From: Cirrosporium novae-zelandiae | Taxonomy: Eukaryota | NCBI GenBank assembly: GCA_026023565.1 | Contig: JAPETS010000003.1 | Span: 1,054,001-1,118,000, forward strand | DNA length: 64,000 bases | Direction of reading: 5' to 3' | Part shown: positions 6,902 through 63,053 of the stretch, one piece after another | Position numbering within the stretch: position 1 is the stretch's first letter | Layout of the letters: each line of letters begins with the position of its first letter | Notes under the pieces: model-generated | What the model saw: the letters and a program-made list of their open reading frames with translations, nothing else | What the model was told of the DNA's origin: nothing | Database searches by the model: none | Position numbers and translations under genes: made by a program

Positions 6902-8507
6902 ATGACTCCCTCAAAGATCAAATCAGTGGCTGTTCTTGGAGCCGGTCCTTCGGGGCTGGCTACTGCCAAGTGCGTCCTCTGCAAGTAATTATATATATAA
7001 ATTTAACATATCTAACCCTCCAAAAGATATCTTCTTGCAGAGAACTATTTCGAGAAAATTGATGTCTTTGAGCAGGCTAGTCGCAGTGGTGGTGTTTGGA
7101 ATTACTCATCCCCTGGGAATGGCCATGGTCTTTCGGTACCCCAGACAAGCCCGCATGTTCCTCTTGAGGAGCCTCTCAAGCCGGAAGCTCATATTAATGG
7201 TGCCATGAACGGGGACGATACCGAAGTGACTTTTGTCTCCCCAATATATGACCGCTTGGAAACAAATATACCACATTTTCTGATGCAATTTCACGATAAG
7301 CCATTCCCAAAAGATATACAACTCTTTCCGCCCTATCCGGTTGTTACGCAGTATCTGCATGAATATGCTGAAGATATCCGCCATCTGATATCATTCCATG
7401 TTCAAGTGGTTGATGTTCGGCTTAAGAAGGAAGGAAGCGAAGATGTTTGGATAGTCAAGACTAAGAATCTCAAGACACAGGCTGTTACGGAAGGTTTGTA
7501 TGATGCTGTAGTCGTTGCGACTGGACATTATAGGTGAAGTTTCTTGTGGCAGTGTAAACTGATCAAGCCTTTACTGATTTAAAATTGATTGATATAGTGT
7601 TCCATATGTACCAGATGTCAAAGGAATTTCGCATTGGGATCATACTTACCCGGGAATAATCTCCCATTCCAAATTCTATCGTCGCCCAGAAACCTTCAAA
7701 GATAAGAAGGTAGTAGTCGTTGGAAATTCGGCATCTGGAATTGATGTTGCCGCTCAAGTTAGCCAATTTGCCAAAAAGCCCGTACTACAGTCGCAAGAAT
7801 CGGAATCGTATATGAATGTTGGACCTGTCCCATCATGGAAGGAGGAGCTTCCGCGAATTGTTGAATTCTTACCTCCTGAAACTTACAACAAGGCAATCCG
7901 TTTCGAAAATGGCCGGATTGAGGAAGGGGTCGATGCTATTGTATTCTGCACTGGATATTTCTACTCATTCCCCTTCCTTTCTTCTCTAGAGCCACCTCTG
8001 ATCAGCGACGGAACAAGGACACAACATGTTTTCAAACATTTGTTTTATATTGACCACCCGACCTTAGCATTCTCGGTGCTAATGTATAAGATCATCCCTT
8101 TCCCTCTTGCTGAAAGCCAGGCTGTAGTCTTGGCCCGTATATGGGCAGGACGGCTTTCTTTACCGGATAAGGCAGATATGTCTAAATGGGAACAGGCCGT
8201 CATATCTGAGAAAGGTGCTGGAAAACGCTTTCACGAAATGACATTTCCAAAAGATGCAGAGTATCTAGATGAAATGCATGATTGGGCAGAACAGGCTACA
8301 CTTAGAGACGGCTTAGAAAGAGAAGGGAAAGGTAAGGAAGGTCCCAAATGGAGCGATAAGCAAAGATGGTTCAGAGGGCGGTTTCCACTTATAAAAGCCG
8401 CTTTCCTTGCTCAAGGGGAGGGTCGACGTAACATAAAGACCATGGAAGAGTTAGGATTTGACTATGAAGCTTGGCAAAATAATGAACAGGAGGAGAATAT
8501 TGTGTGA
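6902..8507 (+). CDS. fmo1: Flavin-containing monooxygenase (FMO family, thiol-specific FMO-like)
   Basis: Exons 6902-6969, 7027-7533 and 7598-8507. Motifs: FAD-binding GAGPSG, GGVW, ATGHY, FMO signature YPGIISHSKFY, NADPH-binding GNSASG, and FCTGY. Confidence 0.9.
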
Positions 8508-9261: not shown

Positions 9262-11823
9262 ATGGAAACTCCGAGCAGCGATATCAATAGAAATAATTCA
9301 CCGGGTACTCGAGATTTCAAGACTTCGAAAGAATTTTCAGTAGTTCATATACTAATTAAACTATCCAGGACCTTTAAAACCAGCACACCGTATTTCAAAA
9401 GCGTGTGAAGCATGTAGGAGCAGAAAGACTAAATGCGATGGGAAGGTATGTAATAGTTATTTGATAATTCCACAATTTGGAGCATCATGATAGCAAAGAT
9501 AACTTCAACCCATACACATACGAGCTTGGCTGGTGCTGACGAACCTGTCGTTATCAAGCGGCCATGTAGCTATTGCCAACAACGCAATGCTATGTGCACC
9601 TATCGAATTGCCACTCGTCGTCCTAAAAGGGCTTCAAATCTGGATCCTACAAAACGTGAATCTACCCCCCAAGAGCATGCTGACCATGGAGACGGAGAAC
9701 TTGATGACTCAAGCTTGGAGTATCAAGATGCGATGCATACTAGTATTATCGCCTCTCATGCTGCTACTCCCTCATGTATTATACAACTCTACTATGGCCC
9801 ATCATCAAATTTCTCATTCGTGCAACAATTACATCGTAGACTGGATCCGGATTATGATCTCTCTATTAGGGGCGGAGGCGAAGTTAAAGAAGGTGGAGCC
9901 GAATTGGATTTATTCAGGCATAGAGGTGTTTTCTTCGGTCGCCCTACCATTAATCAGAACCGTATGAAATCTACTCGTGGGGAAACACAGTTGACATTCT
10001 TGCATTACGACCTTGCGAAAACTTTTCTTCAAACTTTCTTGTCAACAACTTACTGTCTTTGCCCGATCCAGAGTCCACAACAACTAGAGATAAAACTCGA
10101 CACGTTGTATGGTCAAGTCGATGCAAGCCCTTTAAGTCTCTCAGACAAAGCAATGCTTGTTATGACTCTCGCTGTTGGGGCATCTCTGACTGAATACGAT
10201 GACTGGGGAAATTGCCTTTTCAAAGATGCTAAATCTGATATGGAAATATTAGATGACGTTGTCAACCTTCAAATGGTCCAACTCTATCTACTTTCGATAA
10301 GTCTCCTTGCATTTCTAGTCACCATAGAAAGCTTACTAACATTGGCTTTTGGGTTTCTTTTACGCACACTATCAGGTGAATGTGGGACGGCCAAATTCCG
10401 GATATCTGATGCTCGGAAACGCAGTACGTACAGCCTTTTCAGCAGGCCTTCATAAAACTATTCCTATTGTGGCCAACGATCCGGAAAAGGAGGCCCAAAT
10501 CCGAGAACGGAGCACAACTTTTTGGGCTCTCTATTGTTTTGAAACGTATGTTCCATTGCAAACTCATTAAGCTTATGTTTTTGCGCTGACTCTTATTCCG
10601 CGTTTTAGTTATCTCTGTTACACTGCTGGAAGGCCGAGCTCGATTCCTGAAAGTGTTATTGATATCAAGCTACCTGATAATCAACCCGTTCTCTTAGCAC
10701 TTGTACGAATATCCAAAATCATTTGGTCTGCCGCTCAGAAGATCTACTCCCATAGGCATGCTTCTGTTAGGTCCACTTGGAGATTGGTCCAAACAACTCA
10801 TCGAACATTGAAGACTTTCGCTGCCGACGTAGAAAATAGCCTTGGGTTTAACGTGGATGGTCCCCTTCTACCAGGTGAATTAGGTGTGGTTCAAATATTT
10901 ATCTCTTGTCGTAAGGCACCCTTCCCTGAAGTTACATGTTTAAATCAGCTCAGAAAATTTAACATAGTCTACCATCACACCATGCTTCTTAGCCTTCGTC
11001 CCTTCCTTGTACTTCACGAAGTATGGAGGAAACAGAACCAAAATTCAGACGATCCAGCGTGGTTGCTTGAAGCATGCCAGCATGCAGTCAACTCAGCACG
11101 GAGCCTTATATCCATTATTATTGATGGAAATGAGCTTCACCACCTACTCAGAGTGTGTTTCCCTTTGTAGTTCCAGTAAGTATGTCTACACTAACAACCT
11201 GCTAGGGATACGGCTATTTTATTTACTACATCGAAACTGCCTCTTATGTGCTTATGTTTGACATTCTCCGTGAAGAGAAATCTAGGTTGCAGAATGTCTC
11301 CACGGTCAAATCTGCACTAAAGTGTCTTTCTAATATGACAGTTCCGGGGCAAAATATTCGTGATGGTTATTTTGGTATTCAGCGTATGCTTGATGCCATT
11401 GAAGGTATACCAACACAAGATGAACAAATTCCTGAACGTAATACATTAGGCCATCGTTTTGTTTCCTCCATTCCTATGACATTAGAGAGCTCACCATCTG
11501 TTTCGAGTCAGGATGGTACCAAAACCACTGCAATAAATCAATATAACCTATGCTGGTCACAGAATCAAGCTCCTGATGCCAGCCCCAATGCCATTGGAGT
11601 GGACAGTCAGAACGTATCACAACTCCAGACAATGGCACCTTCGATGCCGAATCAAGTACCACCAGAAGCGGCTTACAATTTCCCCGCCCTTTCCGGGCCC
11701 TTTCTAGGTCATGATCTACCAAACTTTAGCTTCCCTGGCGGGGATTGGAACTTTGATTTATCAACAGCCGATCTTGAGTGTTTGATGTCAATAGATGAAA
11801 ATGAGGAATCAGGGCTCAGGTAG
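9262..11823 (+). CDS. Zn(II)2Cys6 transcription factor with fungal-specific TF (middle homology) domain
   Basis: The spliced N-terminus reads RISKACEACRSRKTKCDGK / RPCSYCQQRNAMCTY (six-Cys cluster split by an intron at ~9446). Further motifs: YYGPSSNFSF, GNAVRTAFSAGLH, ERSTTFWALYCFE, GRPSSI, YHHTMLLSLRPFL. It has several introns, and the start codon is inferred. Confidence 0.88.
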
Positions 11824-18683: not shown

Positions 18684-19604
18684 TCACTCCACGATATCTG
18701 TACTCCTCCAAACATCCTCGTGCCCCTCTACCACCCTCTTCAGCCACTCAATCTGATTTTTCAGTGCTTCCCCACAATCACTCCCAATAAGTAACTTACC
18801 CAACTCTCCTTTTTTCTCTCTTAGCTTTTCCTTCCACATCCCAGTTCCCATAACAAACTCATACATTCGAGCAGCAGCCTTCTCAGGATCTCCAGCCTGC
18901 TTCCAGTTGGACTCCTTGATACGCTCTACCACTTGTCGCATCGACGTGCTATCATATGCCTTAATGAATGCAGGTGGCATATTTGTCCCGCTAGCATGGC
19001 TAGCCAAAAATCCTGTGCGGACCATGCCTGGATTCACGACTGCAACCCTAATATCAAAATCCGCAACCTCGATTGCCAGAGATTGTGAGAACCCTTCAAT
19101 GGCAAATTTAGAAGCGCTGTAAATGCCTCCTGGTGGTACGGCCCAGAACCCGGCCATACTGCTCAGATTGAGAATTGTGGTTGGTGGAGTGGTGAGATTG
19201 GCACGATGTGATTGCGAAGCCGTGCGCAGATACGGAAGTGCAGCACGAATCAGTCGCAACATTCCGAATACATTGACTTCGAATTGTCTTTTTGTTTCTT
19301 CGTCACTGATCTCCTCCAATAGTCCGAGGTAAGCATAGCCGGCGTTATTTACCAACACATCGACTTGGCCAAAGGCTGCAACCGCCTTTTCCATAAATGC
19401 TGACGTTTGTGATGGAGTGTAATGTGCATCGAAAGGGATGGTGACAACATTAGGATTGTTGAGGAGGGAGCTAGGGGCTTTAGAAGGAGTTCGCATTGCG
19501 GCAATGACTCGACCACCGTGGGATAGGACTTCAGTCGACAAGGCTAGGCCCAGGCCTGCGGAGGCACCTGTGATTATCCAAGTGAGGGGTTTCTGTTCTG
19601 CCAT
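18684..19604 (-). CDS. Short-chain dehydrogenase/reductase (17-beta-HSD-like classical SDR)
   Basis: TGASAGLG, DVLVNNAG, FEVNVFG, LSSMAG, catalytic YSASK, PGMVRT and GDPEKAA. Intronless, 306 aa. Confidence 0.93.
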   Translation of the reverse strand: MAEQKPLTWIITGASAGLGLALSTEVLSHGGRVIAAMRTPSKAPSSLLNNPNVVTIPFDAHYTPSQTSAFMEKAVAAFGQVDVLVNNAGYAYLGLLEEISDEETKRQFEVNVFGMLRLIRAALPYLRTASQSHRANLTTPPTTILNLSSMAGFWAVPPGGIYSASKFAIEGFSQSLAIEVADFDIRVAVVNPGMVRTGFLASHASGTNMPPAFIKAYDSTSMRQVVERIKESNWKQAGDPEKAAARMYEFVMGTGMWKEKLREKKGELGKLLIGSDCGEALKNQIEWLKRVVEGHEDVWRSTDIVE

Positions 19605-19850
19605 GACTACTAAGTGACTTAAGATCTGAAATGATTTGCTCTGCTGTTTTGGTGTAAAAAGGAGAAATGACTAGCGATGGGAAGAAGGATATGATTGAGA
19701 ATGGATGGGCCCTCGAAGCACAATTTATATTCTGCGGAGGCCTCAGAATTCCGGGGTTTGGGGCAAGGAGATTTCGGGTCTGGAGATAGTGTATCATTTT
19801 GCCAATAGCTGAATGAGAAAGAATGGAAATAATTGGCAATTAAGTCTGTA

Positions 19851-19991
19851 GACCATCCCCCGTGAAGTCGCTGGCATTGCGTTATATACTGCTGGGTATG
19901 GTGTGGTGAGTAAGGGATGTCTTAGTAATAAGGTAATAATTAAGGAAGTTTAATGAAATTTATGCGAGGAACGACTTGACGGGGGATGGTC
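19851..19991. repeat. 20-bp inverted repeat (19/20 identity, 101-bp spacer) in the SDR / chimeric-TF bidirectional promoter
   Basis: 19851-19870 is GACCATCCCCCGTGAAGTCG. 19972-19991 is CGACTTGACGGGGGATGGTC (reverse complement GACCATCCCCCGTCAAGTCG). No target-site duplication is seen. Confidence 0.85.
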
Positions 19992-20170
19992 CGTGCATGA
20001 GTTATGATACCGCAAAGTGCCATGGTGCGTGAATATGTTCTTATCCAAGTCCAAGAGTCCACCAAACATGGTTAATTAATTATCACTACTACTATTCATA
20101 TATGTAGCTGTAAGAGTTTTCGGGATCTTTTCATTTCCATCCTTCTCTATCTACTTGTATTCGTGTAATC

Positions 20171-22201
20171 ATGCCCACCCACGGCCACGAGATCCACGTC
20201 GGCGACACGTTCCCTAGCATATCATCCTTTGTACAGGCTCTTCATACTTGGGCTGCTGAAGCTCATTTTACGCCCAGGAAGAAAGAAAACCACCGTGGCA
20301 TAGTGCGATATGGATGTCGATCATCTGACTCCTGCACATTTGCAATCAATGCACACTGGAATGAAGACGTGCAGAAGGTTATTGTTACAATGCTCGTCCC
20401 CTCCCATACCTGTTCGGGGGCAGAGCATGTGGCAAGAAGGCCAGCTAGCAGCGTCGATTGGCTTACTGAGAAAATCCCATCGCTTATGACAGTTACGATG
20501 GACACTCCGACAAGGCAGATACAGCAGACGCTACGAAGACATATCGGTCTAGACATCAATATTCGTCAAATACAACGTGCCAAGAAAACAATCGTTCAAT
20601 CCGCAAACCCCAGTATCTCCCGGGCTCTCCCTTCCAACCCTGCACTCATAATTTCATCTCATTCTAGCGACAAGAAACCATATCTATTCCATCACTATGT
20701 CACCTATGTCGCACCTATCATGGTGCCTCTTTCTTCTCTCCACAATCCCTGGCAAACATACTACCCTCAATTAGCAAGCAGTGGCTCCTCCAAGGGAGAA
20801 ACTTCCCTATACCACTCCATGCTTTCTCAAGCAGCTGCAAACCTCTCCCACTTATATAGAGGTGAGCAAAAGGAGAACATGAAAACACTTTCTATGAGAT
20901 ATTATGGAGAAGCTGTAAAAGATCTGCGAGAGAGCATCATAGATGGGGAAAGGGACTTCAACGTTTTCGTGGCTGGTGTACTGACGCTTATAATGGCAGA
21001 GGTACGTTGCCTTTAATTGTATTTATAGTTCGCATGATGATGGACTCGTGGCTTGATCTTAAATCTTTGCTCTCTGCGCATTTGCGACTGCTTATTTCAC
21101 TATATGTTGCCTTCTTTATAAAGAATTTTGTCTCCTCGCATTTCCCGTCCCCAAGTTTCTTCTTTGTGCTTATTTCCTTGTCATATTCAGTTAGTGTGAT
21201 GATAGATTCCTCATTGGGTGAAGATAACTAACCTTCATTTATAGATCTATAGTGGAGGTGCCACATGTGGCCGTTCCAATGCATGGCGCCTTCACCTTGA
21301 GGGCGCATGGAGCTTCCTTCTCACCTATAAAGACGACAAACCTTGGTTATCTGATGACCTCACTTTGATGACTGCTCAGAGTTTATGTCTCCTGAAAATC
21401 AGAAGCCATTGTTTCGCCAGTGCCTATTGTCGCAGCTTCATTTCCTGTTGTCCTTACGCCAAGGACGATGATATGTCAGCCTACCTTGATCTCACAGCTA
21501 TGATAGCATCTACGCGGCTCTCATTTGGTTCCACGGTGGGTGCTACACCTGACCTCATGTCTTGCATTGCGGACATCGATTATGTTGTGTATCAGATCCG
21601 GGAAGGAAAACGTGGTTTTAAAGAGGCCAAAGAGTATTTCATCGGTATTTCTGAAAGACTCGAAAATTGCCTCCCCGTAAATGTGAATGGTGAAGATCTC
21701 GCGCCAAGTGTCGCTACTCTGGAAAATAGCCCCTCCATCAGCCATATAGATTCGAAACTTTCGATCAAGAGGTTAGAATCTCGGAGGGCTCGTATTCATA
21801 TCCGCATCTTCCAAATAGGGGTGCAAATTTATCTTTACAGAAACACAAGGAGCCCCCCGCCGTTTGACCTTGTTCCTTACGTATCCATGCTTTTTCATCT
21901 TGTGCAAACCTTTTCCAATCTCGGTAGCGATAGTGGTAGGGTTCCTAGCATCACGCTCTGGCCTGTTTTTATGGCAGCCATAGAAGTTTTCCGTGAAGCT
22001 GATAAGAGACTAACAAGGGAGTGGCTCAACACGGCAGATCAACTTGGAATTGGAAACCGGAAGGAGGTGAGACTAATTATTGAAGAAGTATGGCGGATCC
22101 GAACAGAGGTTGCACGCAGCACAAAAAGGGAAGAGGGCGAAATTGTGGTGGACTGGAGGCAAGTTATGGAAGACTTGAACTTAGATATTCTATTGGTTTG
22201 A
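20171..22201 (+). CDS. Chimeric transcription factor: MuDR/MULE transposase-type N-terminal DNA-binding domain fused to a fungal-specific TF (Fungal_trans_2-like) domain
   Basis: Exon 1 is 20171-21001, the intron is 21002-21244 (GTACGT...CTAACCTTCATTTATAG) and in-frame exon 2 is 21245-22201. The N-terminus has VGDTFPSISSFVQAL..WA, C-x5-C-x23-H-x-C and TPTRQIQQTLRRHIGLDINIRQIQRAKK. The C-terminus has LFHHYVTYVAPIM..NPW, YYGEAV, WRLHLEGAW, LWPVFMAAIE, GIGN, IEEVW and VDWRQVM..L..DILLV. Confidence 0.8.
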
Positions 22202-23155
22202 GGAACTGAATATTGTGCTTTTGTTGGTACCTCTGGGATCGATGCTTGCCGGCCAGATGAGCCGACTTGAATGGAGTGGATACTCGGATACGCCGAAATA
22301 CTCCAACATACTCCGTCAGACAATACGCAACACATACATACAAGTACCTGATAGTAGTAGATTTTTGATGCAGGTGATGAGATGAGATGAGATGAACACC
22401 ATAAGTCGATGACATGGATGGATCATGTGGTCCGTGTGTCCTGTGCGGAAACATTGTAAAAAGCTTAATTTTTGGATTTCCAACATATCCATCACCTTCC
22501 CGTCCTTGTCGTTCTACTGCCTGTCATCAATTCATTGGTAAAAATATTTGATTGTTCTACTAAAATATTGTTTGTTATTCAAATCATGGGTTTACTCCAA
22601 CCCAGTGACAATTACATGTTAATCCAAAAGGAGGGAAGGAGAGAAGTCATCTCCCGAAGAAAAGCCCGACCAAATAAAATGCTCAAGAAAAAAACACACC
22701 GTTGATTCTGACAAGGTATATGCTGAACTACCTGATACCAAACCATGCTCACCAGCGGAAGTTGCGATATCCGGGTTATGTTATCAAGTTATAGATCGGC
22801 TCATGGGCTGACTCGGAAATGTTGACGAACAATCTACCGGTTACACATTTCGCTTCTATGACCTGACTGGCGATCAAAATTTGCTTGTGATTAAGTCAAA
22901 TAGCTGTTACGCCATCACGAGAATTCTAACCAACATGGAGGGATGGCCGCATATTCCTAGATACCAAGTTGCACTTCAAAAGGACCAAGATTTCCCATTT
23001 GTTAACATTATGTCCATCAAATTATACCAGTTGGAGTTCGAAAAGGGTAAGCTATCTCTCAAAATCACCACAACTCTTCAAGTTCTTAGCTTTGGATTGC
23101 CCTTCTAATATTGATTGCTTGTATCAAGTTTCTGCAGTTGCAAAAGAGATTCAAC

Positions 23156-25231
23156 ATGTCCCTCACTACGACTAGTACTACGACGACGACAACAACACTG
23201 AAGCCGCTGTCATATTCAATCACTAGTGATGACTTGCTTAACTCGAGAGCATGCGACGCTCTCACGCTCGCTGCAAATTACTCCTTCGGCCAAGTAAAAC
23301 CTGACGGCCACTGGTGTGGCGAGCTTCTTTCTAACGCTACTATCACCGCTGAATATGTGTTTTTGCGGCAGGCCCTTGGCCTTGACTTGACCGTCGACCG
23401 TGAGGCTCTATGCCAGTGGTTCTTGTCTCAACAGAAATCGGACGGATCTTGGGCTATTGCGCCTGACTATCCAGGTGATATTTCAGCCACGACGGAGGCC
23501 TACCTCGCCTTGAAGATATTGAATATCCCAGCAGACAATCCCGTGATGCGTCGAGCTCGTAATTTTGTGATCTCGGTAGGCGGTGTTGCCAAGGTTCGTG
23601 TGTTTACTCGCATTTATTTGGCAACTTTTGGACTTTTCCCTTGGGCTGTTGTGCCACAGCTGCCACCAGAATTCATTATCATGCCTTCGTGGTCTCCCAT
23701 CAACATCTACAAGCTGGCGTCTTGGGCGCGTAGCACCATGATCCCTCTACTCATTGTGAGCCATCATCAACCTATATTTTCTTTACCGAATGGAACATTT
23801 GCGCAAAATGACTTCTTGGATGAATTATGGTGCAACCCGGCCGAAAAGATGACACCATGCACACCCCCTCTTTGGGATGCATGGAAAACTGATGGCGTAG
23901 CATTTACATTTGCAGCTAGCGACAAGATACTACACTGCCTTGGCGGCATAAGTCGGCGCATTCCCTTGCGAAAATATGCTCGCCGACGATGTGTGAATTG
24001 GATTTTGGAACATCAAGAGGAGTCTGGAGATTGGGCTGGAATCTTTCCACCAATGCACGTTGGTCTCCTGGCTCTGGTTTTAGAAGGGTTCAAACTTGAG
24101 GACGCGCCTGTGCGCCGTGGTCTTGAAGCTGTGGAACGATTTGCATGGCAAGATAAGGGCGGGAAAAGAGTTCAAGCTTGTGTTTCGCCCGTTTGGGATA
24201 CGATTTTAACAACTGTTGGATTATGTGACTCTGGATTATCTCTAGATGATGAGCACCTCCAACAAGCTGTCCAATGGATCAAAGCTCGTCAGCTACTAGG
24301 CCCACAAGGAGACTGGCGAGTCTACAACCCACGCCTAGCGCCAGGTGGCTTCAGCTTTGAATACTCCAACACCTGGTATCCTGATGTGGATGATACAGCA
24401 GCTGCCGTACTTGCTCTTATTAAGCAGGATCCACGGTCCATAGGTTCGCTCTGTGTTTCACGAGCCTGTGAGTGGATTCTTGGTATGCAAAATCGTGATG
24501 GAGGATGGGCTGCATTTGATCTTGAGAACAACAAGCTCTACCTAAACAAAATCCCTTTTAGCGACATGGACAGTCTCTGTGATCCATCAACTGCCGATGT
24601 GACAGGACGCATTTTAGAAGCATTTGGACTATTACTTCAGAACTCTCGCGATCACCCCGTCTCCAAAGATTTACTACGGCGTCTGCGGTCGGCATCTAAA
24701 CATGCTATTAAGTACCTTGCCCGTACACAGGAATCGCATGGTGGCTGGTATGGCAGGTGGGGTTCGAACTATATATACGGCACAAGCAATACACTTTGCG
24801 GTCTAGCTTACTTCGAGGGCGATTCGCGCGTCCAGGGCTTAGTAAATCCGGCAATGCAATGGCTTAAATCGGTCCAAAATACTGATGGAGGCTGGGGTGA
24901 AGGCCTAGACACATATAAGGATCCAGAAAGAGCCGGTTGCGGCGTATCGACGGCGTCGCAAACAGCTTGGGGAATAATGGCACTATTGCCTTATCTTCCT
25001 CCTAACGATCCAGTCATCACGAAAGGCATTTCCTTTCTGCTACGGTCGCAAACTGATAAGCAAGGGAATGGAGCGTCCTGGCCCGAGACACAGTACACCG
25101 GCACTGGGTTCCCTAAATTTTTCTACTTGGGTTATTCATTATATTCACATTATTTCCCCATGATGGCTCTAGGACGATATGTACGAGCGGCAGGACGCTT
25201 GGCGTTACAGGAGGCTAAGTTGTCATTTTGA
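23156..25231 (+). CDS. shc: Squalene-hopene cyclase (hopanoid/triterpene cyclase)
   Basis: Intronless, ~691 aa from the ATG at 23156. Catalytic DXDD motif in GGFSFEYSNTWYPDVDDTA (not the DCTAE of oxidosqualene cyclases). QW repeats (QKSDGSW, QEESGDW, QNRDGGW, QESHGGW, QNTDGGW), plus QACVSPVWDT, YGRWGSNYIYGT and TGTGFP. Confidence 0.95.
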   Translation: MSLTTTSTTTTTTTLKPLSYSITSDDLLNSRACDALTLAANYSFGQVKPDGHWCGELLSNATITAEYVFLRQALGLDLTVDREALCQWFLSQQKSDGSWAIAPDYPGDISATTEAYLALKILNIPADNPVMRRARNFVISVGGVAKVRVFTRIYLATFGLFPWAVVPQLPPEFIIMPSWSPINIYKLASWARSTMIPLLIVSHHQPIFSLPNGTFAQNDFLDELWCNPAEKMTPCTPPLWDAWKTDGVAFTFAASDKILHCLGGISRRIPLRKYARRRCVNWILEHQEESGDWAGIFPPMHVGLLALVLEGFKLEDAPVRRGLEAVERFAWQDKGGKRVQACVSPVWDTILTTVGLCDSGLSLDDEHLQQAVQWIKARQLLGPQGDWRVYNPRLAPGGFSFEYSNTWYPDVDDTAAAVLALIKQDPRSIGSLCVSRACEWILGMQNRDGGWAAFDLENNKLYLNKIPFSDMDSLCDPSTADVTGRILEAFGLLLQNSRDHPVSKDLLRRLRSASKHAIKYLARTQESHGGWYGRWGSNYIYGTSNTLCGLAYFEGDSRVQGLVNPAMQWLKSVQNTDGGWGEGLDTYKDPERAGCGVSTASQTAWGIMALLPYLPPNDPVITKGISFLLRSQTDKQGNGASWPETQYTGTGFPKFFYLGYSLYSHYFPMMALGRYVRAAGRLALQEAKLSF

Positions 25232-25689: not shown

Positions 25690-25761
25690 CACATACATAC
25701 ACAGAAACAAAAACATACACATACACAAGCACATACACAGACACAGACACAGACACAGACA
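25690..25761. repeat. Compound (ACACAT/ACACAG)-type microsatellite
   Basis: cacatacatacacagaaacaaaaacatacacatacacaagcacatacacagacacagacacagacacagaca. Confidence 0.8.
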
Positions 25762-37136: not shown

Positions 37137-38794
37137 CTACAAATCTCCAAATACCTTCTCTTCCATCTCCGCCACCTTTTCTGCCAATTGACGGACTTCT
37201 TCCCGACTCAGAGTCCCATACTCAGAAACATAGACATCCACATATTCCTTAGGTACCCATTCAAAGTATATGTTATGGATCTTGAGACCTCCGGCCAAGG
37301 CGTCTTGATATTCACTCTCCTTCTCAGACTTAAAAGACCAACTCTCGCTAACTTCTTCTGGGTTATTTTCCTCTACCACATGCTCGAGTGCTCCCGGCTT
37401 AGCAATCTTGTCAACTTCTGCCAGAATAACCACATCAACCTGCCTATCTCCAGCAAGCTTCTTGGCACAGAGCACTGCTGGAAAGCTCCCAGTCTTGTTA
37501 CTCACGTCTCCTTCTCCAGATATTCGATCAGCACCAAGTAGTACCATATCAATATCTTTGGCCATCATGGCAACATGGCTATCTGGAGCTAGTTTGACGT
37601 TGAGGCGATCGGGCCCGATGCCTTGCCCGCGGAGCTCAGAAAGGAATAAAGAGCCGAATGTGGCACCCTCGTTTCGAGGACGGGACTCTAACACCCGTAG
37701 CTCAACGCATAAGTTAGGAAATCGCAGAATTGCAGTTGATAGACAGTCTCTAACTGACAAGGATGATGAAAGGGTTAGAATTCTCAATGGTCGATTCTCT
37801 TCTTGGAGCGTGGAAAGCTTCGTCTCCTCTAGCCAGTTGATAAACTGCTGCGCAAGCTTTCCCCCACCCGTATATCGTTCATTAATGACCAGCTCTAACT
37901 TTTTGCCCGCATTATTTCGGAGACGGTCTAGACCTTTTTGACCCTCCATTTTATACCACAGAATGCTAACATTCTTCAACCAACCCTCGCGCACTGCGCC
38001 TAGGGCTCTCACGACAGCACTGGTTATTGCTGCTCCCATACTAGGTCGCGCATTTGAAAAATGCCAGCTTGATATTCTCAACAGATCCCACAACTCTTTT
38101 GCCGATGTTGCTTTTCCCCCTTCTTCCGGATCGACCAAGACTTTGCGAAGATAACTTACAGCATTAGTAGCTAATTCTCTCGCGCCACTATCATGATCAT
38201 TTTCCAAGGCGGTGATGGCTTCACTTGTAGTAGGTCCAATTATTACACGACTTAAACTTGTGTTTAGATGTGGAACAGTTTCTCCTTTTTTCCCACGCTC
38301 TATCACTTCTGCTGGAGAAACCCATTGGAATTCCGTGTGCTCCCAGTCAATAACGGGCTCCTTATCTTTGCCTTCTTCTGTAGCCGCCGGCCGCAGCATA
38401 AATGCAAAAGGATGGATAGTCCATCGCGTGCTAAGAGACTTGTCGATTATCGAGAAGGGTTTTCCGGCGCGGATAAATTCAAGGTCACTGGAAGTGTAGG
38501 CTGTTTCTTCAACAAGCTCTCGTTCTGCTGCAACTAGGGACGAGGCGTCTGTTTCCTCAATATGACCGGAGCAGGCAGCCCATTTCCCCCTAACGGATCA
38601 GGATTAGTACGAATGTGCCCGAATGAATTTCGGCTGTGAAAGAATAGAGCTTGAAATGCGCACTTGTATGAATGAACTTTCTCACTGCGCTTGAAAATCA
38701 AGACGTGAAGACCTTCGGGGGTATCTTTGCAGACGAAAGAAGAGACAACTAAGCGATGCTTAAGCTCCTGGGGAGGATTCGAGATGCCTGTCAT
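37137..38794 (-). CDS. Nudix hydrolase fused to an IF-2B family (eIF2B alpha/beta/delta, ribose-1,5-bisphosphate isomerase-like) domain
   Basis: Start MTGISNP at 38794, with one intron at ~38662-38591. Nudix part: VVSSFV...LIFKRSEKVHSY.GKWAACSGHIEETD...AAERELVEET...IDWEHTEFQWV. IF-2B part: DHDSGARELA, ARPSMGAAI, TLSSS, ESRPRNEG, LLGADRI, NKTGS, NIYFEWVP. Confidence 0.88.
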
Positions 38795-57443: not shown

Positions 57444-58986
57444 CGTCAAAACTTCAGCACGCAATGATGAACAACTGCACATATATTCTGAATACATGAA
57501 TCCCATATTGTCGCGATATTAGCATTGAATTTGTGTTTTACAAGAGCAGGAGCGCGGGAGCGAGCATATGACTGAAAATTCCGGCGTTATTCACTTGCTT
57601 ATACAATACTACCCCAAAACTGCGAGCACTTAGTTGACTCGCAGCGAGTTACAAACGGACCAATATGTCCGTATTTGTATTTGCCAGCAAATAGTCTGGC
57701 TATGTTAAGGCGTCAGCAACATAATGCCCTTGGGTGGTCGTTTTTCATCTTGTGTCTCTTTGGCATGACGACGACAGAGATGGGACGATACAGAGTATGA
57801 TGATCTATCAGGACCTCCAGCCTGAGAAATTATCTTCAACTCTCTACTCATTTTGAAATCGGTAGGGGGGAGATGATGGTGGCCGAGGAGAGTTGCATGA
57901 CAAAACTAGGGGAGGGGTTGGGTATCGTGTATCCATGAACCTACCCCATTTAGCCATGAGTTAAATGACTCCAATGATGATTGACCAAATACATTTCATA
58001 TTATTGCGGTTCACCCGGACAGGACCGTGTAGATGGGCATATTAATGATTATTGATAGTCTTGGCAAGTTTAGAAGGTATACGGGCCCTTCCGATATGAC
58101 GATTGCCAGTATACGTAGGCCAAGTAGCTCCCCGACACATATCCATCAGACATTTTGAGACATTTTCAAAGCCTCGGCACGTGCTCGGATATGGGAAATG
58201 TTATCTGCTTGAAGCGTGTTGCCTAAGGCTACAAACTTGGTCTAACGCTTCCAGGTCTAGTCCCATTTATATAACTAGCGTAGAATTGAGAATACAATCA
58301 ACCTCAACTACACGACCAAATATAATTATCTACCTGGGTAATTACTCTCATGTTCATGAACGGAATAGATATCAATTTTGTGTCACTAGTTCCATGATCA
58401 GCATTTCTAGCCTGTATTCTCCAAATCCCCGAGTGCCTGACGCCTTATTGTTCCGTGAGTGGATAGCAACCTTTCATCTACCAAAGAGGGCGTTCTTAAC
58501 CCTATATCTTGGCATTGGAATACTCGCAGCCTACACAGCCTCATTCAAAAGGCAGTGTATGTGTAGGCAGGATAATACTCACCAGTATTTTAATCCTCGA
58601 GGGCCATTGAATCTTGAGAAGCCTTTTTGCGACCAGCTGATTCCGGTTGCCCACTTTGATTTGCAATTATGAACGTTTGACTCCTGCCAACCCCTCAGCC
58701 ACCTAGTTAAAATCCTTATAATAGCCTTTCAGCATGCGATTGTCTCTTCACTATTTAAATCTAGCTGCTATCACTGCTGCTACAAGTGTCTACTGACACT
58801 TTCTGGGGTTTAATCAATCGTACGCAATCAATTTCAACAATTTCAGCAACCAGGCATTTCCATACAAACTTCCAGAGCCAAAAACAATAACCACATGCAC
58901 CATCGCAAACCTATAATTACAGCTATTGCAATTACAAACGAAATCCAATCACTCCTCAAAGATTTCATTTTTTACTTCTCTTCGAC

Positions 58987-60162
58987 ATGGGTTATGGCAC
59001 ATTCAACGAACAAAACCGGGCTCCGTGCCCCTCCAAAACCCATCTCGCGTCTCGCTGCAAAAATGGGTATACACGACAATCCATTCCCAAAATACACATT
59101 TCCTGTTCAACCACAGAGTCACAAGATGGCGAAGAACCGAGTAGAGACTCGGCCATCTCAATGAGCCCAGATGACCACCCGTTTTCTCCAACTCTAATTC
59201 GGCCCGGAAGTAGTCAGTCTAGCATCAACCTCTGGGCTGAAGAGACGAATCAGAATCAGCTTGAGCAAGAAGAGGAGGAAGATGAGGAAGCATCACTCAC
59301 TTCCTCCCCTTTTCCTTCTTCCTCTTCTTCAGAAACAGATCCCCTAATCTCTCACGCCGAACCCTCAAACGCAAGATGGTACCGGCGCCTTTCGAATATC
59401 TACAGCGCCTTTTTTTATACCACCACATCCCAAACCCCCAAACCAGCCTCAACTCAATCCCTAGGATACACATTCACCCAACCCGCAAGCATTGCGCTCT
59501 CAAAACCCACCGACCTCACCATCACCCTCACATACGGAACCCTGCACGAATTCCTGAGCCATTCCAAGATCAACCACCTACTAAGAGACACAAAACCCCG
59601 AAAAACGGGTCAAAAATGCATTGGAACATCCCCGCGAACTACCTCCTCCTCCTTCATCACATACAGGTCCTCCGCCCCGACAAGCGAAAACCGCAGATAC
59701 AATTTCACAGTCACCACAGACTTAACAGTCCACAGGTACGGAAAACCGCTCGAGTACTATGGCAAGGATTTCCTACACGTACGGAAAACCGTAGAGGATA
59801 CAAGAGACGAGAACCCGGAGGCTGATGCCGAGGCCTGGAAAGTGCAACAGCAACAGCAACAACTTCGAGAGGCTGAAGAACAACAGCAAGCGGCGGCAAC
59901 AACAAAAACGGGAAGAAAGAAATTATCCTCCTTTGAATTAGACGAGATGACAGCTTCATCTTCGTCTTCGTCCTCTTCTACTTCCTTTAGTGCTTTACCC
60001 TCCTCCTCCTCCCCATCCCTCCTCGATTCCCCACAACCTTCACTCACTACCGCCAAGACCAAGACCAACCTTCCCCTCTCCCCAACCCCAAACGACCTAA
60101 ACTACATACCGTTCAACATCTCCTCTAACCCTGGGAAGCGCTCTCTAATCTCTACAATATAA
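58987..60162 (+). CDS. Hypothetical low-complexity (Ser/Thr/Gln-rich) protein
   Basis: 391-codon open frame with acidic, poly-Q and poly-S tracts and no recognisable domain. The start is uncertain. Confidence 0.55.
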   Translation: MGYGTFNEQNRAPCPSKTHLASRCKNGYTRQSIPKIHISCSTTESQDGEEPSRDSAISMSPDDHPFSPTLIRPGSSQSSINLWAEETNQNQLEQEEEEDEEASLTSSPFPSSSSSETDPLISHAEPSNARWYRRLSNIYSAFFYTTTSQTPKPASTQSLGYTFTQPASIALSKPTDLTITLTYGTLHEFLSHSKINHLLRDTKPRKTGQKCIGTSPRTTSSSFITYRSSAPTSENRRYNFTVTTDLTVHRYGKPLEYYGKDFLHVRKTVEDTRDENPEADAEAWKVQQQQQQLREAEEQQQAAATTKTGRKKLSSFELDEMTASSSSSSSSTSFSALPSSSSPSLLDSPQPSLTTAKTKTNLPLSPTPNDLNYIPFNISSNPGKRSLISTI

Positions 60163-61197
60163 CGAAAGAAAAAAAAAGAAACGATAATGAGATGTTTGTT
60201 TGTTTGTTTTTTTAGAAAACGATAACGGGTGGATATGTGGATATGTGGATATGTGTATATGACATACAGTACATACAGCAGTGCATATATATAAAAGTTG
60301 GATGGGATTTAAATGCGATGCGGTTATATATACGTGGGATATAGAATCGAAGAAATGGGAGGGGTTTTTGTTTTTTTGTTTGATCGAGTTATCTGAAGGA
60401 AGAGGAGGAGCACAAGGGGCAGGCGTTCCAAGGTTTATAAAGAATTCCCCATCCCAGCGTTTTCGTTTCAAGTGGATATTACATATCTAGAAACTTGATA
60501 AGATAAGATATAGACCCATAATATCGGTTTGGAGGATGCACTCTGCTTTTATCTATTAACATTATATTCTATACCTTTTGAGATTTAGGTTATTTATTTA
60601 TTTATAATTACTTATTTTATTGTGTGGTTGTATGGTTATATGCTTTATAGAGATGGGTGATAGATAAAGATGATTGATGGTCTACCCTACCATATTTTGT
60701 CTAGATATACACACAAGCACACAAAGAAAAGAAACATTTAAATAAACTTGACCCCAATTTTTTTTTGGTTCATGAAAACACCCGGAGATATGGAGATAAA
60801 ACAAACTTTAAAAAAATCCTTCTCCGCTTTCTTCCTCCTGCTTAAAGCAGCTCAGTGAAACAAGCTTTATAGGATTTCGGGTGAAGTTTTGGGGAGATTT
60901 ACTGGGAGGATAGTAGTAGGTTTGAGAGGGAGAGGAGTGGAGTGTCTGTCTTGGTTGTTCATCTCGGTTCAACAACAACAACATATGAGGGCCGGTTCCA
61001 ATCTTCGTATCCAAGCCTATTTTATCCCCAGTCCAGTCCAGTCCAAGTCCAGTCCAATCCAACCTAATCCAGCCCGCAGCCGTTCCGTGTCATATGTAGC
61101 ATCAAACATGTGTGAAAAAACAGTATGAAAAGAACACAAAAGGCAGATTTTCAAATATCAATCTACATAAGTGAGAATAGTACAGGGTAATAATTGC

Positions 61198-62637
61198 CTA
61201 GGACCAAAACCATCCTTTCTTTCCCTTTGGCGTTTCTCGATCCTGGGGATCTCTCTTACCTACCGCTTGTGATGGCGTCTGCTGCTGCTGTAGCTGCTGT
61301 TGTTGCAAGGAAACCCCATCGGACGCATGCGATGTATGCACGGTCTCGGAGCTCTCTTCTCGGCCGTCCGCAAAGCGCTTTTTTAATACTATCTTTGTGT
61401 GGACAGAGCCGTCCGGCATCACGGTGCGTTCGGTGGTTGTAAGTGTGGAAATAATTGAGGGCGTTTTGGTTGGGTCGCTGGAAGGCTCAGCTGTTGGCTT
61501 TGGTGGGAGTGCAAGTTGTTGCTGTTGTTGCTGTTCCTGTTCCTGTTGTTGGTTTCCGAGCATGTGTTCATATGCGTCCAATTCGGTCTGGGGGGAAGAG
61601 TTGGCTTCATCCTCAATGCGGTCGTTCTCGGGCTGTCTGGTAGAAATGCCATCATCGTAATCATACTGTTCGTCTTCTTTCCATGGTGGTGGTAGTTGTC
61701 CTTGAGAACTGTTAGGCCGCTCTTCCTCCTTTGTCCGAGAAGAACGCTTATGGCATCCCCACTGTTTCTCCCAGTGTTTATGGCAACCCCATGGCCTATT
61801 TGAGTGCCGGGGGCGAGAATTTTCTTGCGTGGAGTCGGGTTCTACTGTTTTCCAGTTTCCAAGACTTCCACGTTCCATCATGCGCCCAATCCAGAGTGAT
61901 CCGTCCTGAAATCTGTTTAGACCTCGGGGTGTTGTTTCTTGCCTCCTTGTTTCAGGATCAACCATTCCGTTTCCTCCTTCTACGGCACCCATAAGATCCT
62001 CGAATGCGTCGCGCCATTTATAACCAAAGTCCCGGAAACCAGGTTGGCGTTCTAGGAAGAGTGGAGAGTATGGCGAGAATATGATAAAGGGGACAGTCCA
62101 GGCGGGGGAATCATTAAAGTTGCGTGAGGAATTCTGGAAGAAGCCGGAAAACCCATCTTCAAAAAACGACCGGAAATGATCATGGTGGTGGAAATGATGA
62201 TGCCCAAAAGGAAAGGGAGGGCGTTTACGTTCCTCGGGATCCCTCTCGTACCACTTTTTGACAGGTATTACAGCCTCTTGGTCTTGGTCTTGGCTTCTCT
62301 GAGCTCTTGCATGTTGTTCCGAGGAATTACCAACACTTTCAGGTGAATTATAGACATTTCCTAACTGTCGGTTGAAGTCCTCCCAAGGATCCCAATATTT
62401 ATCTTGTTCATTTTGCTGTTGATCCTTGGGTTGATCGGGCGAGCGGAGAAAGCGTGAATCGCGAGGGGGAGGAACGAGGGTAGAAGGAAGGCCGACTATA
62501 GATTGTAGGAATGAAGATATTTGTTCATCGGCATAACGTCGAAAGGCGATGAAAGGATTATTCTCGTGCTGGGTATTGTTTTGAGTATTGTTTTGAGAGT
62601 GGTCGGAGCTACGGTCGGAGCTGTCCGATGGAGCCAT
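61198..62637 (-). CDS. Hypothetical protein with conserved-looking motif blocks
   Basis: 479-aa intronless ORF. Blocks NPFIAFRRYADEQISSFLQ, SPYSPLFLE, WRDAFEDL, TELDAYE, IISTLTTTERTVMPDGSVHTKIVLKKRFADGREE and KKGWFWS are separated by disordered linkers. Confidence 0.8.
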   Translation of the reverse strand: MAPSDSSDRSSDHSQNNTQNNTQHENNPFIAFRRYADEQISSFLQSIVGLPSTLVPPPRDSRFLRSPDQPKDQQQNEQDKYWDPWEDFNRQLGNVYNSPESVGNSSEQHARAQRSQDQDQEAVIPVKKWYERDPEERKRPPFPFGHHHFHHHDHFRSFFEDGFSGFFQNSSRNFNDSPAWTVPFIIFSPYSPLFLERQPGFRDFGYKWRDAFEDLMGAVEGGNGMVDPETRRQETTPRGLNRFQDGSLWIGRMMERGSLGNWKTVEPDSTQENSRPRHSNRPWGCHKHWEKQWGCHKRSSRTKEEERPNSSQGQLPPPWKEDEQYDYDDGISTRQPENDRIEDEANSSPQTELDAYEHMLGNQQQEQEQQQQQQLALPPKPTAEPSSDPTKTPSIISTLTTTERTVMPDGSVHTKIVLKKRFADGREESSETVHTSHASDGVSLQQQQLQQQQTPSQAVGKRDPQDRETPKGKKGWFWS

Positions 62638-63053
62638 GACCTTATCAAGATGATTATAGGAGCAAGGCTTTGAGGTTGAAAATGAATTGTAGGTGGTGGT
62701 TTATTGGGTTATTGGATTATTGGAAAGAAAGAAGGAGAATATATAAAGTAGTAGATGGGATATAGAACAAAGGAGTAGAAAGTAAAGAGGTTAAGAAAGG
62801 ACAAGATGGAGCAATTAAATTGAGCTGCCTAGAAGTAGACGAGTGAGATGGGGGAACGCGGGGTGGCACGCCAATTGATTGGATGGCACGTCATACAGTT
62901 ATCCGGCCTTGATCGGCTTATCGAGCTATCACTCCATCTACATGTAATTGTATATCTAATATTCTTTCAAACCATTTCTAAATAATGCAATCCCCTGTTG
63001 GCATTGCTGTTTTATTAAAGTCATTGTTATCATCATAATAAATCCATCAAACA

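Follow-up and report, generated by a model that had tools for sequence, protein, structure and literature searches.

A putative regulator joining a Mutator-derived DNA-binding module to Fungal_trans_2 lies beside a squalene-hopene cyclase gene in Cirrosporium novae-zelandiae

Gene content of the locus

The region described here lies in a 64,000-nucleotide stretch of Cirrosporium novae-zelandiae DNA (assembly GCA_026023565.1, contig JAPETS010000003.1, positions 1,054,001 to 1,118,000 of the forward strand), which in its entirety is called the window below, and it holds three consecutive genes encoding a short-chain dehydrogenase/reductase (SDR), a transcription factor (TF), and a squalene-hopene cyclase (SHC). 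An initial annotation had proposed that these genes form a compact hopanoid pathway governed by a regulator with a transposase-derived DNA-binding domain (DBD). All three genes were found intact at the coordinates in Table 1, with the proposed identities borne out by Pfam matches and motifs, and the spacers between them, annotated as 566 and about 950 bp, measured 566 and 954 bp. The unusual build of the regulator was upheld by our analysis and the pathway was not, and on balance we favor the reading that these intact genes of a filamentous ascomycete are independent of one another.

Table 1. Features of the SDR-TF-SHC region, in window coordinates
Feature	Position	Strand	Details
SDR gene	18684-19604	minus	306 aa, intronless, intact
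SDR-TF divergent intergenic region	19605-20170		566 bp
Inverted repeat in SDR-TF spacer	19851-19991		two 20-nt arms (19851-19870 and 19972-19991), 95% complementary, 101 nt apart
TF gene	20171-22201	plus	two exons, 595 aa, intact
TF exon 1	20171-21001	plus	277 codons; 100% match to P0121 residues 1-277
N-terminal module from a Mutator-like element (MULE) transposase: WRKY-GCM1 (HxC-type) zinc finger plus helical region	20171-20665	plus	TF residues 1-165
Zinc-ligand codons	C49 20315-20317; C55 20333-20335; H79 20405-20407; C81 20411-20413	plus	
TF intron	21002-21244	plus	243 nt, GTACGT...TAG, canonical GT..AG ends
TF exon 2	21245-22201	plus	318 codons plus stop; rest of Fungal_trans_2
TF-SHC spacer (putative SHC promoter)	22202-23155		954 bp, TF stop to SHC start
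SHC gene	23156-25231	plus	691 aa, single open reading frame, intronless

Joining the two TF exons (277 + 318 = 595 amino acids) reproduces, letter for letter, a protein (P0121) deposited as a hypothetical protein of a Cirrosporium novae-zelandiae metagenome-assembled genome (MAG), and the exon 2 product is identical to residues 278-595 of that protein at 318 of 318 positions. Base composition is uniform.

A transposase-derived module at the N terminus of the transcription factor

The origin of the first 165 residues of the TF was traced by an exhaustive phmmer search of 1.84 billion cluster representatives, which returned 179 relatives at E<=1e-3, 54 of them at 1e-10 or better. A Pfam scan and alignment of the 149 listed relatives together with the query (150 sequences) found DBD_Tnp_Mut in 125 members, MULE in 15, AFT in 13, and SWIM in 9; Fungal_trans_2 occurred in none of the 149 relatives, its single instance among the 150 being the query itself. 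Only four columns of this alignment are nearly invariant, namely C49, C55, H79, and C81, which make up the C-x5-C...H-x-C ligand set found in WRKY-GCM1 fingers of the HxC branch. The relatives include true MULE transposases carrying MULE/SWIM domains (P0158, P0205, P0258, and P0266) as well as stand-alone DBD proteins. DBD_Tnp_Mut (PF03108) itself matches residues 8-70 of the TF at 22-23.2 bits, below its gathering score of 25, and the case for homology therefore rests on the zinc ligands and on similarity of sequence and fold.

Structural comparison led to the same family. An AlphaFold (AF2) model of the module, built from the alignment, has four strands and a mean predicted local distance difference test (pLDDT) score of 85.7, and its top PDB match by Foldseek is the Aft2-DNA complex 4lmg (E 3.5e-4), with WRKY18, WRKY1, and a FLYWCH domain ranking next. 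Superposition of the ESM Atlas model of residues 1-165 on plant MULE+SWIM transposases gives template modeling (TM) scores of 0.68-0.80 over about 150-160 residues; the helical region behind the finger is therefore transposase derived as well. An ESM Atlas feature search with the same residues gave no usable match. Because the zinc ligands are conserved, the phmmer relatives include MULE transposases, and the fold is that of Aft2 and WRKY domains, we regard the TF as chimeric and its N-terminal part as Mutator derived, as had been proposed.

The closest listed relative, P0122, is a 311-amino-acid stand-alone protein encoded on another contig of the same genome (43% identical by phmmer, 40% by BLASTP), and its similarity to the TF ends at about residue 150. 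A quick tree built on the module groups the query with P0122 and several short proteins, one of which runs into MULE-catalytic-like sequence (SH-aLRT support for the group, 94), apart from a large lichen-fungus clade of stand-alone proteins that combine the DBD with a CCHC knuckle and a coiled coil. P0122 may be the donor of the fused module or its sister.

That lichen-fungus clade merits a description of its own. The proteins P0126-P0162 are a coherent stand-alone family of 300-430 amino acids from lichen-forming ascomycetes (Stictis, Ramalina, Lambiella, and Loxospora), in which a MuDR DBD and its helical region are joined to a CCHC knuckle and, at the C terminus, to a coiled coil with many 'EAARLMQEAA' repeats. 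The transposase domain is absent in all of them, and they resemble a TF family that has been domesticated.

Two transposon-based explanations of the gene were set aside. Pfam finds no MULE or SWIM domain in P0121, and no terminal inverted repeats were found bracketing the TF gene. With both the catalytic domain and the flanking repeats missing, an active MULE transposon is ruled out, and a recent transposon insertion as the source of the DBD was rejected on the absence of flanking repeats together with the mere 40-43% identity of the closest relative.

A Fungal_trans_2 factor without a Zn2Cys6 cluster

The remainder of the protein belongs to a familiar fungal regulator family. Residues 171-594 of P0121 match Fungal_trans_2 over positions 1-383 of the 384 in the profile (1.9e-44), and the piece encoded by exon 2 is recognized by itself at 4e-19. 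Structural neighbors of this part are Zn2Cys6 factors, and 92% of the nearest structural cluster bears a Zn_clus domain. Fungal_trans_2 normally partners a Zn2Cys6 cluster. In P0121, Pfam gave no match to Zn_clus even at E<=1, and the motif CX2CX6CX5-16CX2CX6-9C occurs neither in P0121 nor in any of the six frames of window 17-27 kb; with the motif absent in all frames and in-frame stops upstream of the TF start codon, an upstream exon encoding the cluster was rejected. The proposal that a transposase-derived DBD stands where a Zn2Cys6 cluster would be expected thus agrees with what is present, a WRKY-GCM1 finger, and with what is missing. The simplest reading is a domain swap in which the MULE-derived DBD replaced the Zn2Cys6 binuclear cluster, and the middle gene would then be a lineage-specific chimeric regulator, with some 150 N-terminal residues of a Mutator-like transposase in the position that Zn2Cys6 usually occupies.

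How rare the combination is was judged from sequence collections and from the literature. A word-based search for TF orthologues among longer proteins, with 1119 candidates, recovered only the TF itself, which is a singleton represented by one member sequence on one contig. Literature searches yielded no description of a protein joining a MuDR DBD (PF03108) to Fungal_trans_2 (PF11951), in keeping with the remark in the initial annotation that such a system is not known to have been described, and among the papers listed on domesticated MULE/WRKY transcription factors in Ascomycota no fungal case was found. As a transposon-derived WRKY-GCM1 factor the TF is of a known kind; its domain combination is new and has been seen a single time, in one MAG.

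A gene seen once raises the question of whether it is a working gene at all. The chimera might be a young, nonfunctional or mismodeled fusion, or an artefact of MAG assembly; in one variant of this idea, a transposase fragment would have been captured ahead of a Fungal_trans_2 gene whose Zn2Cys6 exon had been lost, and an internal ATG would perhaps be used. The singleton status of the gene, the absence of its architecture from the 149 listed relatives, the Pfam score of the DBD under the gathering threshold, and the origin of the sequence in a MAG are all as such a defect would have them. However, exon 1 is one uninterrupted reading frame that passes from the DBD module into Fungal_trans_2, of which it encodes the first ~107 residues, with no stop at the junction, and the intron that follows has canonical ends. 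The closest paralogue is only about 40% identical, yet the four zinc ligands and the nearly invariant core residues are retained, which argues for purifying selection after divergence. The confident AF2 model, the disappearance of both terminal inverted repeats and the transposase catalytic domain from the surroundings, and the uniform base composition likewise speak against a defect, and we consider a defective or artefactual fusion very unlikely. The observed architecture, intact ligands, and fold suggest DNA binding and regulatory activity, and we lean slightly toward the view that the TF works as a DNA-binding regulator, whatever its targets. An active TF would be a clean natural example of DBD replacement in the largest family of fungal regulators and would lend itself well to testing how a Fungal_trans_2 regulator is rewired by a new DBD.

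The cyclase and the dehydrogenase

The SHC is a canonical class II enzyme of a conserved fungal clade and is otherwise ordinary. It matches SQHop_cyclase_N (PF13249) at 3.5e-106 and SQHop_cyclase_C (PF13243) at 2.3e-117, scores 604.7 bits against the TIGR01507 hopene_cyclase equivalog (cut-off, 431.1), and aligns over residues 36-680 to the Alicyclobacillus acidocaldarius SHC 1gsz (1.1e-137), with YPDVDDTA identical. Three Q..GGW motifs are present, and the DVDD motif occupies residues 410-413, encoded at 24383-24394. The annotation of an intronless, DXDD-type cyclase is thereby confirmed on each count: one reading frame, the DVDD motif, a full-length alignment to 1gsz, and a score above the TIGR01507 cut-off.

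Relatives of the cyclase are plentiful: of the 7999 candidates that were scored, 3780 reach E<=0.001. Identities of 59-74% characterize the best 120 listed, which span Lecanoromycetes, Eurotiomycetes, Leotiomycetes, and Sordariomycetes, with one basidiomycete; those with names include Trapelia (70%), Elaphomyces, Leptodophora, Pseudevernia, Cladonia, Penicillium, and Aspergillus. In a quick tree the terminal branch of the window SHC is short (0.27) and lies inside the fungal clade. Such slow evolution and wide retention would suit a housekeeping role in lipid metabolism better than the role of a fast-diversifying natural-product cyclase. The enzyme most likely protonates squalene through its DVDD acid and, without oxygen, forms what we infer to be hop-22(29)-ene and/or hopan-22-ol, and it probably acts alone, as in membrane-hopanoid producers. 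As such, the gene is a data point on hopanoid capacity in a little-sampled class of fungi. An imperfect ACA/ACAG-type microsatellite lies at window 25695-25761, immediately downstream of the SHC gene.

The SDR has the hallmarks of the classical family, namely the TGxxxGxG cofactor motif (TGASAGLG at 12), NNAG at 86, and the catalytic Ser-Tyr-Lys (NLSS at 146 and YSASK at 162), and it matches adh_short at 5.4e-42. No substrate-specific subfamily could be assigned, as none of the best 25 of 203 matched NCBIfam models reached its cut-off; the top model, PRK06180, scored 198.7 bits against a cut-off of 298. The closest solved structure is 3m1a, a 'putative dehydrogenase' (3.5e-29). Among the 120 relatives listed, the best come from Phialocephala subalpina (49%), a Naviculisporaceae species (47%), and Aspergillus filifer (45%), and further ones, about 34-44% identical in partial alignments, are mixed with bacterial proteins. 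The SDR is a generic NAD(P)-dependent oxidoreductase.

Intergenic regions

If one regulator served both the SDR and the SHC, its sites might be expected in both spacers. The 566-bp and 954-bp spacers have 20 8-mers in common, against 20.8 +/- 5.9 in shuffled sequences, and control spacers gave similar values, so that the sharing of k-mers is at chance level. The SDR-TF spacer contains an inverted repeat; a search of the window that allowed up to 3 mismatches found its two arms and nothing else (0 expected). Within the window the repeat is confined to this spacer, and no copy of an arm lies upstream of the SHC gene. One arm holds TTGAC, the core of a W box. The repeat could be a binding site or the relic of a small element. 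Its identification as a miniature inverted-repeat transposable element was rejected, there being no target-site duplication in the flanks and no other copies in the window.

This arrangement bears on a reading in which the TF is functional but has its targets elsewhere, or acts on the divergent SDR only, while the SHC is expressed constitutively or under sterol- or oxygen-type control and its position next to the TF is coincidental. The TF and the SDR share a 566-bp bidirectional promoter and the SHC owns a separate 954-bp upstream region, the inverted repeat is present in the SDR-TF spacer only, and the SHC clade is so conserved in sequence that a role in core lipids would fit. Against this, the inverted repeat may be a functionless relic. 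We rate this reading as unlikely.

Genomic context

The surroundings of the trio are housekeeping genes. The 28 larger open reading frames (ORFs) scanned in the window encode POT1, MCM5, DUF2196, SPX-EXS, CYK3, an amidase, an esterase, and similar proteins; a cytochrome P450 (P450) or glycosyltransferase was found in none of the 28, and no transporter adjoins the trio. The initial annotation had already noted the lack of a P450 and a glycosyltransferase, and the scan agrees with it. The only oxygenase-like ORFs, at 7016-8507, resemble flavin-containing monooxygenases and lie more than 10 kb from the trio, beyond MCM5. Judged as a terpene cluster, the locus has its cyclase, a generic SDR as the sole candidate tailoring gene, and no oxygenase within about 10 kb.

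Elsewhere in the window, a single stop-to-stop ORF at 37137-38597 on the minus strand carries NUDIX and IF-2B-family domains and may represent either a fusion or two exons belonging to neighboring genes. Several ORFs of 190-500 amino acids without a Pfam family at E<=0.001 lie at 9457-11823 on the plus strand and at 58100-62700.

Conservation of linkage was judged indirectly, from hit lists and two metagenome loci, and on that basis no pair among the three genes appeared to be conserved. No named species is common to the SDR list (best 120) and the 22 named SHC rows, and fungi with an SHC about 65-70% identical have proteomes in the database, with no comparably close SDR among the matches listed.

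A scan of metagenomes returned 6 loci, of which L004 and L005 (both from one metagenome) were the only fungal-type SHC loci with flanks. These are near-identical fungal loci (L004, 1-14230; L005, 2466-14496) whose SHCs are 50-52% identical to the window SHC and occupy a long branch of the quick tree. Their flanks hold P450 genes, two SDRs, and a Zn2Cys6 + Fungal_trans_2 factor, and one of the SDR ORFs also has a polysaccharide-deacetylase domain. Pairwise comparison with the window proteins gave marginal matches at most, with best E values of 0.001 for one SDR and 0.36 and 0.39 for the TFs, and L004/L005 and the window trio are not one and the same cluster. L004/L005 is likely an uncharacterized hopane- or fernane-type triterpenoid cluster.

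Pathway or neighborhood

The hypothesis with which this work began is that the SHC supplies a scaffold for the SDR to tailor, with the chimeric TF activating both genes through sites in the two spacers. The three genes are consecutive, and the SDR and TF share a divergent promoter; Fungal_trans_2 factors are generally known as the usual pathway-specific regulators. That fungal SHCs can be clustered at all is shown by the fumihopaside cluster of Aspergillus fumigatus (PMC11051388), and the metagenome loci supply a second instance in which SDRs, P450s, and a Fungal_trans_2 factor accompany an SHC. Set against these points are the failure to find conservation of any gene pair in the hit lists, the chance level of promoter sharing together with the absence of an inverted-repeat arm upstream of the SHC, the housekeeping genes around the trio, and the membership of the SDR in a generic family, below the cut-offs of the specific models.

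The chemistry is also unfavorable. Neither hop-22(29)-ene nor hopan-22-ol (diplopterol), a tertiary alcohol, offers anything to an SDR unless an oxygenase has hydroxylated it beforehand. The window SDR would lack a substrate on either compound because neither a secondary alcohol nor a ketone is present and no oxygenase is near. As for the proposed compact pathway, adjacency is the one link among the genes, and the tests of conservation, context, promoter, and chemistry lent it no support. The role assigned to the TF as its regulator fared no better. We consider a compact three-gene pathway distinctly unlikely, and we regard with the same degree of skepticism the more specific claim that hopanoid synthesis by the neighboring SHC, which needs no oxygen, is controlled by a Mutator-DBD-swapped Fungal_trans_2 factor, perhaps along with the SDR. 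If the latter were true, a transposon-derived switch would govern a sterol-surrogate lipid in a eukaryote; a three-gene pathway would matter only with linkage or coregulation demonstrated.

The trio is, in the reading that we favor on the whole, a chance or loose neighborhood around a stand-alone SHC, and the adjacency of the three genes most likely does not reflect a conserved hopanoid pathway. Several observations weigh against this conclusion. Measurements on A. fumigatus shc mutants included hopane-3beta,22-diol (PMC13556965); SHC-type enzymes can make 3-hydroxy-hopanoids, and the 3-hydroxy group would give the SDR a substrate. The content of L004/L005 means that clusters of SHC, SDR, and TF do occur in fungi, and the layout in the window, with the TF upstream of the cyclase and the SDR divergent from the TF, fits a small fungal gene cluster. 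The lineage is also sparsely sampled (the best non-self SHC is 72% identical), and the absence of TF and SDR orthologues may partly reflect that sampling. Finally, the lack of synteny with the SHC loci of named fungi is something that we infer rather than see.

Comparison with known systems

Among characterized cyclases, the A. acidocaldarius SHC (PDB 1gsz/2sqc; TIGR01507) is one of the closest to the window SHC, and like it the window SHC is a full-length, two-toroid enzyme with QW repeats and an identical YPDVDDTA segment. The closest known fungal SHCs are shc1/AfumA of A. fumigatus, from the fumihopaside cluster, which reportedly includes a P450, and Shc1 of Schizosaccharomyces japonicus. 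In the A. fumigatus cluster, as described in PMC11051388, the SHC is paired with the glycosyltransferase gene afumC and other genes; a glycosyltransferase thus stands beside that SHC, whereas the window SHC has neither a P450 nor a glycosyltransferase adjoining it.

The TF has two sets of counterparts, one for each of its halves. Like the pathway-specific regulators of the Zn2Cys6/Fungal_trans_2 type, it has a complete Fungal_trans_2 and adjoins a terpene cyclase gene; unlike them, it carries a WRKY-GCM1 finger in place of Zn2Cys6. The stand-alone MuDR-DBD proteins (M1834_003751 of the same genome and those of Stictis, Ramalina, Lambiella, and Loxospora) share its N-terminal ~145 residues at 30-43% identity, but there a CCHC knuckle, low-complexity sequence, and a coiled coil at the C terminus follow, with no Fungal_trans_2.

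With Aft1/Aft2 of yeast, Rbf1 of Candida, and FAR1/FHY3 of plants the window TF has in common the fold of the DBD, the MULE origin, and the HxC ligands. Babu et al. (2006; PMC1702500), in the sections available, describe how WRKY-GCM1 domains of MULEs became the TFs Aft1/Rcs1, Aft2, and Rbf1 and how HxC-type copies in Coccidioides and Aspergillus have had the transposase domain truncated or lost. The window TF differs from all of these in that its effector part is Fungal_trans_2, a fusion that goes unmentioned in those sections. Should the TF prove active, it would join Aft1/2 and Rbf1 as the third independent case of a MULE WRKY-GCM1 finger recruited to serve as a transcription factor in fungi.

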